This document shows positions 35,127-62,386 of a stretch of DNA of 64,000 nucleotides, piece by piece. The position numbers were made by a program, and so were the translations under genes. Origin of the DNA: a virus. The DNA lies in UHGV virus genome UHGV-1440165; one strand, given 5' to 3'. The notes under the pieces were generated by a model. That model was not told the origin of the DNA. It saw only the letters and a list, made by a program, of their open reading frames with translations, and searched no databases. The first letter of the stretch is position 1; every line of letters starts with the position of its first letter.

Positions 35127-35201
35127 AGACTGCTCCAATAAACAAAAGGAGCTGCTATTATAGCAGCCCCTTCATCTATTGAACAGCTTCTGAACTTAAA
35201 T

Positions 35202-42603: not shown

Positions 42604-43111
42604 TACTTTTCTCCAGTTCATAATCGCGCTCCACAACATATTGGTAGACACGCATCTTAATATAGTCGGCACCGCCTGCTGAAGACAGCACCCTCCATCC
42701 ACTACTGAGGGCATTCATCTTATATTGACCAACACCCTCTTGAAAATAACTTTTAATCTGTTCCAGCTTTCGCCCACGATGATAATAAGAGATGAGTTCG
42801 CCGATGACAATACATTCTGGATAATGTTTGTCCAATGTATTGATGTTGCGGTGGACATACACGGGCAAAACTTCCTCATCATCGATAGGGCTGTACAATG
42901 GGTCGACGATGATTACATTCAGACCATAACGCAGCAGATCTTTGACGCCCAGTCGACAGAACTTATAATCTTCGTGCTTCATCGCCACATATTCGATATT
43001 CTCTTTCTGAGCATAATCCGTCAAGAAAATAAAGAAGTCTGTGTTGGGATCTGGATATTGTATCGACAATTCCTTGCCGATTTCACTAAAACAAAATCCG
43101 CGCATTTTCAT
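42581..43111 (-). CDS. Hypothetical protein
   Basis: 176-aa ORF. Confidence 0.45.
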   Translation of the reverse strand: MKMRGFCFSEIGKELSIQYPDPNTDFFIFLTDYAQKENIEYVAMKHEDYKFCRLGVKDLLRYGLNVIIVDPLYSPIDDEEVLPVYVHRNINTLDKHYPECIVIGELISYYHRGRKLEQIKSYFQEGVGQYKMNALSSGWRVLSSAGGADYIKMRVYQYVVERDYELEKSNAKRKTR

Positions 43112-43118
43112 TCCTCGT

Positions 43119-43126
43119 TATAAATA
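43119..43126 (+). promoter_or_regulatory. T4-type late promoter candidate (TATAAATA)
   Basis: Exact TATAAATA about 30 nt upstream of the 43156 ATG. Confidence 0.4.
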
Positions 43127-43155
43127 TCTGTACAACTATACTGTGGAGACATATT

Positions 43156-43962
43156 ATGAAATTGCCTTCATTGCCCAGAACGGAAAAGACGTTCAAAAGT
43201 GATTTTTGGCCGAGTGTTATCAAATACCGCGCTTTCACTGCCGGGCAACAAACCCTCATGCTGCAGGTGGCAGATCCAAACACTCCGGTAGCCGAACGCG
43301 CCGAGATCATGGAGAGCCTGTTTGCAGATTGTGTTGAAGCTGGAGCACCGTTCAACAAATTACCCATCGGTGTGGTTGAAGAAGTGTTCATCCGCATGCG
43401 CAGTATCGCTATTGGCGAGCTGATGAAGATTCGTTACAAGTGCAATAACCCTATCGAAGAAACAACCGACCTCGGTGATGGCGAATCCAGAAAAGAAATG
43501 GTTCCGTGTGGGCAAGAACTGACTCTGCCGATCCCCCTCTTGAACGTGAAATGCGTGGCAAAGGAAGGGTTCAAAGAGGTCTTCGACCTGCCTGGTGGTT
43601 ATCACCTGAAGATGCGCCAGCCGTCCTTCGCTGATGCCACCGCGCTGTCCGAATCGGCAAGTGTTGAGCAAATGCTGGCCACCTTTATCGACTGCTTGTA
43701 CGATGACGACGGCCAGGTGTGGAGTGTTGAGAACCCTGATGAACCGGGTATCAAGCCGGAAGATGCTATCGAGCGCCGTCGTGTCAAAGAAGCGTTTATC
43801 GAATGGGTGAAAGATAACCTCGAATCAGATGTCATCGAGGATATCACCAAGAACTTCTTCCATAAGATTCCTCGCATCCACTACAAGAACAAGATCAAGT
43901 GTCCAAAATGTGGTAAAGAACACCCGATCGAGTTCAACAGCATTAATGAAATTTTCATCTAA
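43156..43962 (+). CDS. Putative baseplate protein with C-terminal zinc ribbon (gp26/gp53-like?)
   Basis: 268 aa; late-promoter motif upstream; lies just upstream of the gp5-like gene; C-terminal CPKCGKEH. Confidence 0.4.
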   Translation: MKLPSLPRTEKTFKSDFWPSVIKYRAFTAGQQTLMLQVADPNTPVAERAEIMESLFADCVEAGAPFNKLPIGVVEEVFIRMRSIAIGELMKIRYKCNNPIEETTDLGDGESRKEMVPCGQELTLPIPLLNVKCVAKEGFKEVFDLPGGYHLKMRQPSFADATALSESASVEQMLATFIDCLYDDDGQVWSVENPDEPGIKPEDAIERRRVKEAFIEWVKDNLESDVIEDITKNFFHKIPRIHYKNKIKCPKCGKEHPIEFNSINEIFI

Positions 43963-44117
43963 TGTTTGAAACTGATTTGCTATCCTACTTCGTGATGTGT
44001 GATGAATTGAAGTTACACGGCTATAACATATTCGAAATCAACGAGTCGATGCCATGGCACCTTGACTTGTTAACCGAAGCCCTCCGGGTCAGGTTATCTA
44101 AGAAGAACCCCGCATAA
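43962..44117 (+). CDS. Small ORF (51 aa), hypothetical
   Basis: ATG overlaps the upstream TAA (TAATG); its TAA stop lies in the loop of the 44108-44128 terminator. Confidence 0.3.
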   Translation: MFETDLLSYFVMCDELKLHGYNIFEINESMPWHLDLLTEALRVRLSKKNPA

Positions 44118-44128
44118 GCGGGGTTTTT
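44108..44128 (+). terminator. Rho-independent terminator
   Basis: ccccgc-ataa-gcgggg hairpin followed by TTTTT. Confidence 0.65.
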
Positions 44129-44177
44129 ATTGGCTTAACTGTAAAACAGGTTAATGCCGCTCCTCTTTACCCGAAAT

Positions 44178-44186
44178 TGTTATAAT
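44178..44186 (+). promoter_or_regulatory. Extended -10 promoter candidate (TGTTATAAT)
   Basis: TGn immediately upstream of TATAAT; no good -35; about 280 nt upstream of gp5. Confidence 0.3.
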
Positions 44187-44468
44187 AGGCGTGTTCCTGA
44201 GTTAACAATTGGCGGTCTCTGGTTTTGAATCAGATTGTCAATTAAAAACCATTTTTCAAGGGATGTTCTGAGGTGTACAGTTATTGCCTCGCTCTTATGC
44301 CTCCATGGCATTGGAATGGTGCTGCCTGCATAAGGCGGTCTGATGAGCGAAGCGAATAGGATCGAATAAGACAATAACGGAACGGAAGCAGAGCTTCCTA
44401 TAGTATATAAGGCAAAATCCGTTGCGCATAAATACCTTCAAATCCTTGTTTGACAACTGGAACACAAC

Positions 44469-46079
44469 ATGTTAGACAAAATGAAATGGTTTTATGGCAC
44501 GGTTGAAGACGTCAACGATCCGGACCAAAACGGGCGCGTGGCCGTCCGCATCTATGGCGTACACACAGACGATCCAGTCCTCCTGCCTACCGATAAACTC
44601 CCATGGGCGAAGGTGTTAATGCCTGCATCGAATGCCTCCTCGGCTGGTTTAGGCTGGTCACCGACTGGTATTATCGTTGGCACTGAGGTCATGGGGTTCG
44701 CCCTGGACGATGCGTATCAGAATCTGCGTATCACTTGGACATGGCCGGGGGCTTCTCCTACCGATGGGGCAGACACAAACCCGCTGGCTCTGGGGCAGGT
44801 TGTGCAATCTGTCGAACGTCAGGCGTACAATGCTGTGACGGACGTGCCTGTGAAGGAAGAAGACACACCGCCACCGGACCCCCAGCCTCCTGTTGGTGGA
44901 TATGATCCTGAAAAATGGATGACTATCGCTCGTGGTGAATTGGGTGTCAAAGAGTACGCTGGCAAGTTCAATAACAACCCACGAATCGTTGAGTACCACA
45001 AGACCACCTCCCTCGGCGCATCTGAAGATGAGGTGTCATGGTGTGCGGCGTTCGTCGGTTGGGTTATGCTCAAGGCCGGATTTACGTCTACGCGCTCTGC
45101 TCTTGCCCGATCATACCTGACATGGGGTAGTCCACTGTCAGGACCACAATATGGCGCTATCGTAGTGTTCCGGCGCGGGAACAACCCTACGTTCGGTCAC
45201 GTGGCGTTTGTACAGAAGTTCGATGCCAACTATGTGTGGTGTCTTGGTGGCAACCAGTCTGACTCCGTGAAGGTGAGCCGTTTCAGCCGATCTTCAGTTC
45301 TGGGCTACCGCTGGCCGGGTCCGACTAACACTACCGCAGCAGCCCCAGCACAACAGAACGGGAAGTGGTCTGAACCTATCCCAGACCGTACTCCAAAAGA
45401 GCAGACGACTCCGCCTCCTTCCGGGCGTGTGCAGGATATTGACAACACTGGCGAGACTATGGTTCCGGCAGCGGGTGGTTCCAAATATCCGTACAACAAT
45501 GTCATGGCTTCACGTGCGGGGCACATCATGGAAGTGGACGACACTCCTGGTGGTGAACGTCTCCACTGGATGCACATGTCAGGCTCGTACAAGCAGATGC
45601 TGCCGGACGGGGATGTTGTCAACAAGTCGGTCAAAGACCACTATGACCTGACTATGTTCAACAAACGCTATTATGTTGGCGGCGATCACAACCTGACTAT
45701 CAAAGGGACTGAGGTGCAGCGCAAGAACGGTGAAGTCTATCACCTGCACTCCAGCAATTACTCAAATGTGGTTGCAGGCACGGCGCTATTAAAGTTCAGC
45801 GATCTGGTCGAAATGCAGGCACAGAAGATCTTGCGTATCATCTGTGAGACTCTTGAAGTTGGCGGTGTTCTGAAAGTTCCTAAGCTGCTGGTCACAGAGA
45901 TCATCGCCGATAAACTGACGGTGGCACAGACAATCAACGGCAACATCATATATGCTGAAGGTGCTGGTCGTGCTTCTTCTCTGTCGGGTGCAACCCCGGC
46001 CAGCCCTACGGGTCCGGGTGAGATAGATATCAAGGCAGAGCTAAAAGACAATGGTGGTAATTTCTCCTCAGGGGAATAA
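44469..46079 (+). CDS. 5: Baseplate central spike (gp5-like) with CHAP/NlpC-P60-type peptidase domain
   Basis: N-terminus WFYGTVEDVNDPDQNGRVAVRIYGVHT matches the gp5 OB domain; middle has a Cys/His pair (SWCAAFVGW ... FGHVAFV); C-terminal beta-helix-like repeats. Confidence 0.75.
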   Translation: MLDKMKWFYGTVEDVNDPDQNGRVAVRIYGVHTDDPVLLPTDKLPWAKVLMPASNASSAGLGWSPTGIIVGTEVMGFALDDAYQNLRITWTWPGASPTDGADTNPLALGQVVQSVERQAYNAVTDVPVKEEDTPPPDPQPPVGGYDPEKWMTIARGELGVKEYAGKFNNNPRIVEYHKTTSLGASEDEVSWCAAFVGWVMLKAGFTSTRSALARSYLTWGSPLSGPQYGAIVVFRRGNNPTFGHVAFVQKFDANYVWCLGGNQSDSVKVSRFSRSSVLGYRWPGPTNTTAAAPAQQNGKWSEPIPDRTPKEQTTPPPSGRVQDIDNTGETMVPAAGGSKYPYNNVMASRAGHIMEVDDTPGGERLHWMHMSGSYKQMLPDGDVVNKSVKDHYDLTMFNKRYYVGGDHNLTIKGTEVQRKNGEVYHLHSSNYSNVVAGTALLKFSDLVEMQAQKILRIICETLEVGGVLKVPKLLVTEIIADKLTVAQTINGNIIYAEGAGRASSLSGATPASPTGPGEIDIKAELKDNGGNFSSGE

Positions 46080-46096
46080 CCTGGTATAGTTTAGCG

Positions 46097-46121
46097 GCAG
46101 AGAGGCAGCACGTCTCTCTGC
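46097..46121 (+). terminator. Hairpin after gp5 (terminator candidate)
   Basis: 8-bp stem gcagagag / ctctctgc with a 9-nt loop; weak T tract. Confidence 0.4.
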
Positions 46122-46151
46122 TCCTTCTAGGCATCCTCAGGGGGTGTGTAA

Positions 46152-47634: not shown

Positions 47635-47712
47635 GGTGTAGTTCCTGCTGTTCAATTTGTGGCGAATGCCAATGAATTACTGGGAAGTATAGGGGAGGGT
47701 GTTTCAAAAGTA

Positions 47713-47733
47713 AAGCCCCTCATTGAGGGGCTT
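47713..47733 (-). terminator. Terminator hairpin
   Basis: aagcccctc-att-gaggggctt stem-loop. Confidence 0.55.
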
Positions 47734-47740
47734 TGGCAGA

Positions 47741-51513: not shown

Positions 51514-52389
51514 TTAAATGTCGTACAGATCGTTGACTTCCAGCATCAGGCGGGTGAAGTCGCCGCGCCCGTTGCGATCAGACTTGTCGAACTCGATGAT
51601 GCTGAACGGCTGAACCCATTCAGGATATTCATCACCGACGCCAACACCATCGATCTTCAGGGTTCCGGCCTCCAGCTTGGTGTTGAAGTCACGGAAGGAC
51701 TGAACGTACTTCTCAAGAGCACTGTCACGCAGGCGCTTGTTGGGCTGTTTGATGTCACCGTTGACAAAGATGTAAGTCGAATCGGAAGCACGGGTCAGCA
51801 GGTTCTTCAGCTGCTCCATATCGCATTCCTGGGCTTCTTCAATGATCAGGAAGGTGTCATCAAAGGTCATACCCTTGATGGTCTCCAGATCCTGGATCTC
51901 AATGATCCGCTTCTCCCACAGATAGTTGAAGAACCCGTCGCTGCCCGTATCTGTCTTCAGCACCTTCTTCAGAGTCTGAATCAGGGGCATCAGATATGGC
52001 ATCAGCTTTTCGTATGTATCACCGGGGCGGAAGCCTGCAGTCTGGCCTGTTGGCAGCGGAGAGCGCGTGATGACGATCTTGCTGACGACTTTATCGATCA
52101 GGAGCTTGGCGGCGGCTGAGGCACCACAGTATGATTTACCTGTACCAGCAGGACCGATTGCGATGGTGAGGTTTTCTTCAAGAGCAGATTGATAAGCGAG
52201 GTTCTGATTCTCTGAGAGGCCATTGAACGGAGCGATTCTGAAGTCACCTTTGGAGAACTTCATCCAGTCATCTTCTTTCTGGACAGTTTCTTTCCGACGT
52301 GCTGACTTGGTTTTGCCCGCTGGCTTCATACTTACAACTTTGGTGGCAGATTGCATGGGAACCTTCCTATATCTAAGGGGTGTCATCAC
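51514..52389 (-). CDS. phoH: PhoH-like P-loop ATPase
   Basis: Walker A GPAGTGKS, Walker B FLIIEEAQ. Confidence 0.8.
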   Translation of the reverse strand: MMTPLRYRKVPMQSATKVVSMKPAGKTKSARRKETVQKEDDWMKFSKGDFRIAPFNGLSENQNLAYQSALEENLTIAIGPAGTGKSYCGASAAAKLLIDKVVSKIVITRSPLPTGQTAGFRPGDTYEKLMPYLMPLIQTLKKVLKTDTGSDGFFNYLWEKRIIEIQDLETIKGMTFDDTFLIIEEAQECDMEQLKNLLTRASDSTYIFVNGDIKQPNKRLRDSALEKYVQSFRDFNTKLEAGTLKIDGVGVGDEYPEWVQPFSIIEFDKSDRNGRGDFTRLMLEVNDLYDI

Positions 52390-52435
52390 CTTTAATTAAG
52401 GCGACACACCCAGCATACCCGAGGCTTGGATAAAG

Positions 52436-52454
52436 AAAAAGGCCGTTTCCGGCC
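52436..52454 (-). terminator. Rho-independent terminator (minus strand)
   Basis: ggccg-tttc-cggcc hairpin with a T run on the minus strand, just downstream of the endolysin stop. Confidence 0.6.
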
Positions 52455-52460
52455 TTTGAG

Positions 52461-54514: not shown

Positions 54515-54660
54515 GATGTAATTCCTCATAATGTAGTTGGTTCGTTTCACTTTTCATTCGGCGGTGTGTTGCCGCCCTATGTGAACTATAATAGGGCACC
54601 ATTATTGAAGAGTAAAGTCTTTTTCAATAATTTTTTAAAATATTTTTGAAGTATTTTAAA

Positions 54661-54681
54661 AGGCCTCATTCGACGAGGCCT
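54661..54681 (-). terminator. Terminator hairpin
   Basis: aggcctc-attcgac-gaggcct stem-loop. Confidence 0.5.
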
Positions 54682-54710
54682 GGAGGGAAGGTGATGTGAA
54701 GTAAAAAGTT

Positions 54711-60927: not shown

Positions 60928-61003
60928 GGTGTAGTTCCTTCGTTTCAAGTTGGTGTCGTACTGCTTATGTATTGAAGTATAGGGAAGGTTATTGAAGAAG
61001 TAA

Positions 61004-61024
61004 AGGGGCAAAAGCCCCTTTTAT
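61004..61024. terminator. Bidirectional terminator hairpin
   Basis: aggggc-aaaa-gcccct stem-loop followed by TTTTA. Confidence 0.55.
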
Positions 61025-61034
61025 TGAATTATTT

Positions 61035-61673
61035 TTACGGTGTTGGGTTCACAACAGGAATATGGAATCTGATTCCAGCGATGATGTCCTTCAGCTGAGG
61101 TTTCCAGCCAGCCACCAAGCGAGGGAGAGCGACAGAACCGGGCTGAACTAAAATGATGTCGCTGCCTGTGATGTTGTGCTGAGGGAATTGGGCAAGATAT
61201 TGCTCCATTGTGACGCCCGGATCAATCAGAACAGGACCAACATCAGATGATGCATAAGTCGCACCCAGACCGTCAACACCCCATGCCAAGATACCCCAGT
61301 CAGGGATGTTGGCTTCAGATGTGATGGTGAACCCAAACACGGTGTTCAGCGAGGTGAAGGAGTAGACGTCGTGAGTGATGTCATACACCAGATACCCCTT
61401 GGCCAGCATATCGGCAAAGATCGCGTCTGTGTCTCCCGCCGCTGGAGTCGGTACGGTAAACAACAGCTCACCAGCCGGAGGAACAGGATACGTGCCGAGG
61501 GCATAGAGGCACCATGCGTCAATGCACTTCTTAATGAATGTCTCTGACGCCACATAATCGGCAAGGCGAACCGTGCCTGAGTACTCGGATACGATGATGC
61601 CTTCCTTCGCGCCCTGTAGAGCAATGAAGACCAAGATATGTTCATATCCGGTCTGGGATGGAGTGATGTTCAT
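61035..61673 (-). CDS. Hypothetical protein
   Basis: 212-aa ORF. Confidence 0.5.
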   Translation of the reverse strand: MNITPSQTGYEHILVFIALQGAKEGIIVSEYSGTVRLADYVASETFIKKCIDAWCLYALGTYPVPPAGELLFTVPTPAAGDTDAIFADMLAKGYLVYDITHDVYSFTSLNTVFGFTITSEANIPDWGILAWGVDGLGATYASSDVGPVLIDPGVTMEQYLAQFPQHNITGSDIILVQPGSVALPRLVAGWKPQLKDIIAGIRFHIPVVNPTP

Positions 61674-62287: not shown

Positions 62288-62356
62288 GATGGCGTTCCTT
62301 ATGTGGTTTGTCGACTTGCAGCTCGATTGAGCCTCCTGACAGGGGTTAAAAGATAA

Positions 62357-62380
62357 AGGGCACGTGATATTTAGTGCCCT
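62357..62380 (-). terminator. Hairpin, terminator candidate
   Basis: agggcac ... gtgccct stem-loop downstream of the 62387 gene. Confidence 0.4.
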
Positions 62381-62386
62381 TCAGCC

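Follow-up and report, generated by a model that had tools for sequence, protein, structure and literature searches.

A conserved structured RNA element between a terminator and the gp5 late promoter in an Agtrevirus genome and related Ackermannviridae

Organization of the gp26-gp5 interval

The interval between the genes for a gp26-like baseplate protein and the gp5 baseplate hub protein was analyzed in UHGV virus genome UHGV-1440165, using a stretch of 64,000 nucleotides (the window; positions are counted from its first letter, one strand, 5' to 3'). It was found to hold a structured RNA element of about 215 nt on the + strand, at approximately 44190-44405 with a conserved core at 44285-44362, which appears to represent an undescribed phage RNA family. 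The window is a segment of an Agtrevirus (Ackermannviridae) genome; positions 43100-44700 were 98.5% identical to Salmonella phage pSal-SNUABM-02 and could be aligned end to end with 266 Ackermannviridae records. Upstream of the interval, a + strand gene at 43156-43962 encodes a gp26-like baseplate hub or hub-assembly protein of 268 aa (PF12322 T4_baseplate, E 4e-45; phrog_150, E 3e-54) and is preceded by a TATAAATA late promoter at 43119-43126, with ATAAATA at 43120-43126. Downstream, also on the + strand, lies the gene for the gp5 baseplate hub and cell-puncturing protein with a CHAP domain (44469-46079; phrog_430, E 7e-153), Pfam matches to Gp5_OB and CHAP being obtained on gp5 homologues. 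The gap from the end of the gp26-like gene (43962) to the start of gp5 (44469) measured 506 nt, in agreement with the roughly 500 nt given in the first-pass annotation of this DNA. That annotation had regarded the whole gap as a non-coding leader of gp5 with an embedded open reading frame (ORF) of 51 aa. This view did not hold, as the ORF is a conserved protein gene; the non-coding part is therefore only 351 nt long (44118-44468), and the interval is made up of four separate units, a small gene, a terminator, the structured RNA and a late promoter, which rules out one long leader.

The small gene occupies 43962-44117 on the + strand, its start overlapping the gp26 stop (TAATG) and its TAA stop (44115-44117) lying in the loop of the terminator, as had been observed at the outset. 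Its 51-aa product matched phrog_9633 (E 3e-37), a family of unknown function. When tested as a possible counterpart of T4 gp51, it gave a weak match to phrog_634, 'baseplate hub assembly catalyst', at E 7e-4 over 47 residues only, and a Pfam search with this protein returned no match. The frame was maintained in all genera aligned, with mostly synonymous differences, and a small ORF overlapping the gp26 stop was also present in Vibrio, Ralstonia and Stenotrophomonas relatives. The small gene would be translationally coupled to gp26, and its product is probably a hub-assembly helper. The ORF is unannotated in many deposited genomes (those examined were L005 ZQ1, L006 SFP10, L061 and L063-L065); in the ZQ1 record, moreover, the gp5 start is annotated 150 nt downstream of the conserved ATGTTAGAC start.

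With respect to its initiation, the first codon of the small ORF, which overlaps the gp26 stop (43950-43964), was ATG in some lineages and ATT, ATC or ATA in Kuttervirus, Taipeivirus, Miltonvirus and six uncultured lineages. The ten residues that follow were conserved, with synonymous changes. Either re-initiation may occur at non-AUG codons, or this position may be an Ile/Met sense codon read after a -1 slip on U_UUC (43953-43956), which would give a fusion with gp26. A T run two codons ahead of the gp26 stop was kept even in Vibrio phages, RSP15 (T_TTT_TTT) and YB07 (T_TTT_TTC).

The gp26/small-ORF unit ends in an intrinsic terminator at 44106-44128 (+ strand), consisting of a hairpin (44106-44125) followed by TTTTT. 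The hairpin has the arms AACCCCGC and GCGGGGTT around a 4-nt ATAA loop that holds the TAA of the ORF, and its stem is of 8 bp, or 11 bp when A-U and G·U pairs are added. Its description as a strong terminator was borne out by a fold of -18.1 kcal/mol (z = -5.7), with none of 200 shuffled sequences as stable, and by covariation of the stem among relatives (CCCCGC/GCGGGG, TCCCGC/GCGGGA, CCCCAC/GTGGGG). It is already annotated in LIMEstone1 and phage May, and it escaped a simple terminator scan solely because its stem is able to continue into the run of T. Directly 3' of it is a conserved block at 44136-44155, CTTA(A/C/T)(C/T)TGT...A(C/T)AGGT(T/C)(A/T)A, which is partly palindromic in the window (TTAAC...GTTAA), not in every lineage. 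Its centre is about 47 nt before the transcript start proposed below, and it may serve as an upstream promoter element or bind a protein.

The last unit of the interval is the gp5 late promoter, CATAAATA, at 44427-44434 (+ strand), 34 nt before the gp5 ATG, where a late-promoter-like motif had been noted at about 35 nt. It is annotated as a putative late promoter in LIMEstone1, whose authors had already marked both the terminator and the late promoter of this interval (PMC3296691). The motif was invariant in 27 of the 28 aligned sequences that reach the position, with CAATAAATA read in CRW-SP2, L078 and L081 (L080 ends before the site), and it stands at a fixed 41-43 nt from the gp5 ATG in the aligned relatives. 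It matches the T4-type late box (TATAAATA-like) at 7/8 bases and has the character of a T4-type late promoter. ATAAATA occurs three times in the window, the other two copies preceding gp26 and a baseplate gene. As predicted from this promoter, the leader of the late gp5 mRNA is about 30 nt long. The gp25 gene, which follows gp5 after a 72-nt gap (46080-46151) carrying an inverted repeat, GCAGAGAGGCAGCACGTCTCTCTGC, has no late-promoter box of its own and on these grounds is probably co-transcribed with gp5.

A structured RNA element with compensatory base changes

The final alignment (A3) comprised 21 distinct sequences from Aglimvirinae, Kuttervirus, Taipeivirus and eight uncultured lineages. 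An earlier RNAalifold analysis of 20 sequences had proposed hairpins with compensatory changes, after which the divergent Aglimvirinae member CRW-SP2 was added; nine uncultured lineages were brought in through gp26 homologues of 51-74% identity. In the final model six helices with 27 pairs were present, and all 567 cells of the alignment held standard pairs (100% paired in the 21 sequences), with a compensatory change on both sides at 11/27 pairs. The covariation score was 0.30 compared with 0.11 in shuffled alignments, none of 500 of which reached it. When the partners were moved by 1-3 columns, only 33-41% of cells were paired and 0-2 compensatory pairs remained. Earlier and smaller helix models agreed with the final one. 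The pair states occurred in seven combinations (haplotypes), which indicates that several independent substitutions have taken place. The order within the element is an H-type pseudoknot, an interleaved pair of helices, a hairpin with tandem G·A mismatches, a variable A-rich linker and a terminal hairpin.

Pseudoknot 1 is formed on the + strand by the invariant stem H2, AUGCC/GGCAU (44297-44301 with 44307-44311), and by pairing of its loop CCAU (44303-44306) with AUGG (44316-44319). Only one pair varied in this module, 44305-44317, which was A-U in 10 of the 21 sequences and C-G in the other 11 and was never broken; as the two states are spread over different haplotypes, at least two switches must have occurred at this pair. 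With an invariant first stem, a covarying second stem and loops of 1, 0 and 4 nt, the module is predicted to fold as an H-type pseudoknot.

A second knotted or switching module follows at 44320-44338 (+ strand). Its helix H3a (44320-44322 with 44328-44330) showed three states at one pair (U-A 7, C-G 10, G-C 4) and two at the next (G-C 14, A-U 7). Helix H3b (44323-44327 with 44333-44337, extendable to 44321-44339) had three compensatory pairs and one invariant U·G, and both helices were 100% paired and covaried. The invariant U·G is the pair 44323-44337; at 44321-44339, G·U alternates with A-U. The structure is assigned to the + strand because the invariant G·U pairs would be C·A mismatches on the - strand.

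Hairpin H5 (44343-44357, + strand; 44343-44348 with 44352-44357) has the form A-Y-G-A-G-C/G-C-G-A-R-U with a loop of 3-5 nt and invariant tandem G·A/A·G mismatches. It was 100% paired, pair 44344-44356 being C-G in 16 sequences and U-A in 5, and the apex pair changing from G-C to A-U in sequence L079. The terminal hairpin H4, GGAAGC-AGA-GCUUCC, had been recognized beforehand; it is present at 44384-44398 (+ strand; 44384-44389 with 44393-44398), one base from the 44385-44399 first assigned to it. H4 contained three covarying pairs (stems GGAAGC, GGAUGC, GGCUGC, GACUGC and GGUUUGC, with variable loops), and its fold had an energy of -8.1 kcal/mol (z = -2.75).

Two further conserved + strand motifs were noted. 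A nearly invariant CCUCGC at 44287-44292 is complementary to the invariant GCGAG of H5 and may form an alternative closing helix with it; the minimum free energy fold pairs CCUCGC with 44345-44354. Covariation is impossible for this pairing because both sides are invariant. The alignments also contained an A5-N3-U5-C motif, AAAAACCATTTTTC, at 44244-44257, kept even in Miltonvirus, which is a possible single-stranded protein or RNase site. A helix S2' (44269-44273 with 44287-44291) was dropped from the model since it was not maintained in several lineages.

Conservation, phylogenetic range and copy number

The first-pass annotation had also proposed comparison with related phages, and here the element, helices included, proved to be kept across several Ackermannviridae genera. 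The non-coding stretch matched 272 phage records, with identities of 90.6% to Ag3, 89% to Limestonevirus, about 73% to Kuttervirus and about 70% to Taipeivirus over its positions 1-291. Within Aglimvirinae the identity of the gap was 84-88% versus 76-80% for the flanking genes; in Kuttervirus and Taipeivirus, gap and flanks were conserved to about the same degree. The element was also found in nine uncultured lineages. A covariance model of the core scored 94.6 bits for its single copy in the window and 94.5 bits for the one copy in 50 kb of Kuttervirus SFP10, and it also detected one copy in L080, a sequence outside the training set (68 bits). No second copy was found in the window by BLAST or by the covariance model, and the model detected no core in Miltonvirus, Vibrio phages, RSP15, nACB2 or YB07.

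Miltonvirus has a gap of the same size (341 nt) with the A5N3U5 motif and the GA hairpin, the latter twice, and a different middle part in place of the pseudoknots. This suggests that the element is modular, with the GA hairpin as its most widely kept part, as Miltonvirus carries this hairpin twice and no core. The Miltonvirus hairpins (L029 3600-3660; L066-L068) read GUUC-GAGCUUUGCGA-GAAC and AUCC-GAGCGUAGCGA-GUGAU and lie in an almost invariant 100-nt block. An 11-mer, GAGCGAAGCGA, common to Miltonvirus and Vibrio phage D493 was considered as a deep motif and was treated as weak evidence, because other Vibrio phages have ordinary triloop hairpins at that place. Nine matches of the core motif in bacterial genomes lay inside unrelated genes and were attributed to chance.

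The covariance-model scan suggested at the outset, performed with Rfam 15 on the window interval and six relatives, placed the element in no family and gave only sub-threshold matches to the terminator hairpin, even with E up to 10 for the interval. No tRNA or tmRNA was detected by scanning, and the exact core motif had zero matches in a scan of metagenome contigs. For LIMEstone1, which shares gp26, the small ORF, the terminator and the late promoter with the window, the 300 nt from the terminator to the late promoter bear no annotation and go without comment (HE600015; PMC3296691). A 2024 review of the Ackermannviridae does not mention non-coding RNA, promoters or transcripts.

Other intergenic regions of the window were also highly conserved. 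Compared with Kuttervirus SFP10, the 199-nt region at 54515-54710 showed 88.5% identity from end to end, a value above that of most coding DNA, and it is a candidate for a further regulatory or RNA element. Similar cases against SFP10 were 62288-62383 (96%), 47639-47735 (92%), 60930-61037 (87%) and 52359-52456 (87%).

Proposed interpretation as a separate small RNA and points against it

From its comparative pattern the fold between the terminator and the late promoter can be regarded as under purifying selection, and it is very probably a functional structured RNA on the + strand. The earlier suggestion of either a small RNA or a structured 5' untranslated region thus stood in so far as a + strand structure of about 215 nt is kept by compensatory substitutions across subfamilies. 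The second option failed for the main late mRNA of gp5, which cannot contain the element because the invariant late promoter lies 3' of it. The reading we favor, at a probability of about 0.45, is that the element is a separate small RNA acting through its folded core. It would be transcribed early by host polymerase from a conserved TGnTATAAT-like site, P1, and the resulting RNA of about 215 nt would end, or be trimmed, at or near the terminal hairpin H4. The folded core would then bind a protein or a small ligand, rather than act by long antisense pairing, and we infer that it would do so in trans.

P1 is a promoter-like extended -10 within a conserved AAATTG(T/C)TATAA(T/C) block at 44175-44186 (+ strand). 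In the window it reads TGTTATAAT at 44178-44186, as initially annotated, and is a perfect TGn-TATAAT from which a transcript would start at about 44192-44195. The block, AAATTGYTATAA, was conserved; TGNTATAAT occurred only twice in the 64 kb, a frequency that taken alone is not beyond chance. The other TGNTATAAT (35140-35175, - strand) falls within the loop region of a hairpin, GGGGCTGCTATAATAGCAGCTCC, that runs into TTTTG; this site has the appearance of a terminator separating two - strand genes, not of a promoter. At the opposite end of the element, H4 is followed at 44399-44404 (+ strand) by TATAGT, which is TATAAT in most relatives with A2 and T6 invariant in the alignments. These bases may form an A/U tail to H4 or, alternatively, the -10 of a further promoter of sigma-70-like type, P2, for which H4 would be the spacer; a -35-like (T/A/C)TGAAC occurs 15-16 nt upstream of this putative -10.

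Several observations weigh against the small RNA reading. With respect to its boundaries, some Taipeivirus and uncultured lineages no longer have the TG of P1, and position 6 of its -10 varied (T, C, A or G) among lineages. The bases after H4 are UAUAGUAU in the window and UAUAAUAU in most relatives, with no U tract, so that termination there would be weak. If H4 serves as the spacer of P2, read-through into gp5 becomes possible. With respect to the fold, folding of the whole gap was unremarkable (z = -1.0 on the + strand and -1.75 on the - strand); what sets the element apart from chance is comparative evidence and not its thermodynamics. No conserved fold was seen in the 5' third of the proposed transcript, nor a common one in the first 50 nt after the promoter-like site, and a helix H1 (44264-44268 with 44275-44279) was dropped as it fails in several lineages. 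H3a and H3b cannot both form fully without strain, the first loop being 0 nt; because there is no linker between them, the two helices are either alternative states or parts of a strained knot that stacks on pseudoknot 1. Intergenic DNA is often conserved in this family, many regions being 87-96% identical between Agtrevirus and Kuttervirus, so that conservation alone is weak evidence. Full-text literature searches found no report of an RNA at this locus and no relevant Ackermannviridae transcriptome or non-coding RNA.

Alternative explanations

The imperfectly kept -10, the missing U tract after H4 and the P2-like bases leave three rivals live: a gp5 leader, an intercistronic element and an origin primer RNA. 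Under the first of these, transcripts from P1, or those reading through from gp26, would continue into gp5, and the element would be a structured long 5' leader controlling stability, processing or translation in cis, in the manner of a riboswitch or of a leader operated by a protein. The element lies on the same strand as gp5 and directly upstream of it in every lineage, and the missing U tract of H4 would be in keeping with such a leader. Moreover, Vibrio phage D493 has a hairpin with the same GAGCGAAGCGA apex 25 nt before its gp5 ATG. We nevertheless consider this explanation unlikely, since the main transcript, starting from the invariant late promoter between the element and gp5, skips the element, the spacing from H4 to that promoter varies from 22 to about 60 nt, and duplex prediction of the core against the gp5 start region gave no conserved pairing. 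A small-molecule switch on a baseplate gene would also be without rationale. A riboswitch controlling gp5 was accordingly rejected as an identity: the late promoter intervenes, and no conserved pairing of the core with H4 or with the ribosome-binding site was seen.

It is less probable that the element is the intercistronic part of a late gp26-ORF-gp5-gp25 mRNA arising by read-through of the terminator, in which it would serve as a processing site or a barrier to decay. The four genes share one strand, gp25 is without a promoter of its own, and conserved A/U-rich single-stranded motifs flank the core, all of which would suit this arrangement. The terminator, however, is strong and is itself conserved, and gp5 has its own late promoter.

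Still less credit was given to the element as the primer RNA of a replication origin, whereby a host-type promoter would direct transcription into an A+T-rich stretch and an R-loop would form as at T4 oriF, oriG and oriE. The T4 origins consist of a promoter and an unwinding element where transcription switches strand, oriE using an early promoter (PMC3016281). As at oriF, oriG and oriE, a host-type promoter-like site is present here beside baseplate genes at a transcription strand switch (PMC3016281); in Kuttervirus SFP10, gp26, gp5 and gp25 stand together as a small + strand island, surrounded by a long block of - strand genes for replication and nucleotide metabolism. The GC content also falls to 0.40-0.44, compared with about 0.5 in the flanks. 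R-loop formation in T4, on the other hand, requires no specific RNA sequence or fold (PMC3016281), whereas here the RNA fold, with its pseudoknots, is under selection. The downstream stretch is only mildly A+T-rich, no iterons are present, and composition and skew profiles gave no origin signature.

A purely DNA-level regulatory role, in which promoters and protein operators act and the hairpins are incidental palindromes, was judged very improbable: two -10-like boxes and the late promoter do lie within 260 nt, and conserved intergenic DNA is common in the family, but invariant G·T 'pairs', changes of loop length in H3, H4 and H5, and the non-palindromic covariation of the pseudoknots do not fit sites for dimeric proteins. 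Almost no weight can be given to a core-encoded micro-protein, MPPWHW(N/K)G(A/T)(A/V)C..., from the ATG at 44297 inside H2, for although an ORF of 18-37 codons opens from that ATG in 21/21 sequences and several changes fall at third codon positions, there is no Shine-Dalgarno sequence (the upstream bases are CCUCGCYCUU), three different frames with differing lengths are used after codon 11, 1-nt indels occur inside the core, and correlated changes, in three Watson-Crick combinations, join a third and a first codon position that lie ten bases apart, which pairing explains and coding does not.

Comparison with known RNAs

Compact H-type pseudoknots are known from the leader of phage T4 gene 32 and from small aptamers such as preQ1-I and guanidine-III. 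Pseudoknot 1 resembles these RNAs in its 5-bp stem, 1-nt loop, stacked 4-bp second stem and 4-nt third loop, and its loops are invariant, as they are in knots that bind a protein or a ligand. In contrast to them, the element shows no sequence or covariance-model similarity to any Rfam family, lies outside the leader of the gene's main transcript, and has another interleaved pair of helices immediately after the pseudoknot.

The element resembles phage-encoded small RNAs in being intergenic, single-copy, bounded by a promoter-like site and a hairpin, and confined to one phage family. It differs from them in that its structure is conserved rather than a single-stranded seed and that it lacks the poly-U 3' end typical of Hfq-dependent small RNAs. 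An Hfq-dependent small RNA was rejected as an identity, there being no 3' Rho-independent terminator with poly-U after H4. A hammerhead ribozyme was also considered, since CUGAUGA-GC-GAA-GC-GAA at 44340-44356 resembles a hammerhead core with stem II (CUGAUGAG...GAA). This identity was rejected as well: the core is not conserved among genera (CUGAUGA is replaced by GUUACGA or UUCACGA in others), the base after stem II at the fourth position is U or G-U and not A, the element has neither stems I and III nor a cleavage site, and there was no Rfam match even at E up to 10.

Significance

The terminator, the small ORF and the late promoter of this interval are ordinary features already annotated in relatives. 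The annotation can now be corrected in two respects, in that a real gene is omitted from many records and the late gp5 leader is short. The invariant loops of the core suggest a specific partner. More speculatively, and with a low probability in our estimation, the double-pseudoknot core may be a new functional class of RNA fold, either an aptamer for a ligand or protein or an H3a/H3b switch, which would serve the Ackermannviridae in early capture of a host factor or sensing of the cell state. Separately, and on the same low footing, a conserved -1 ribosomal slip may fuse gp26 with the small ORF, as the counterpart in T4-like hub assembly of the G/GT frameshift of tail-assembly chaperones.

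Phages of the Ackermannviridae (Vi01-, CBA120- and LIMEstone-like) find wide application in biocontrol and in therapy. With its two knotted modules, both supported by covariation, and its retention across subfamilies of these phages, the single-copy element is a candidate new phage regulatory RNA.

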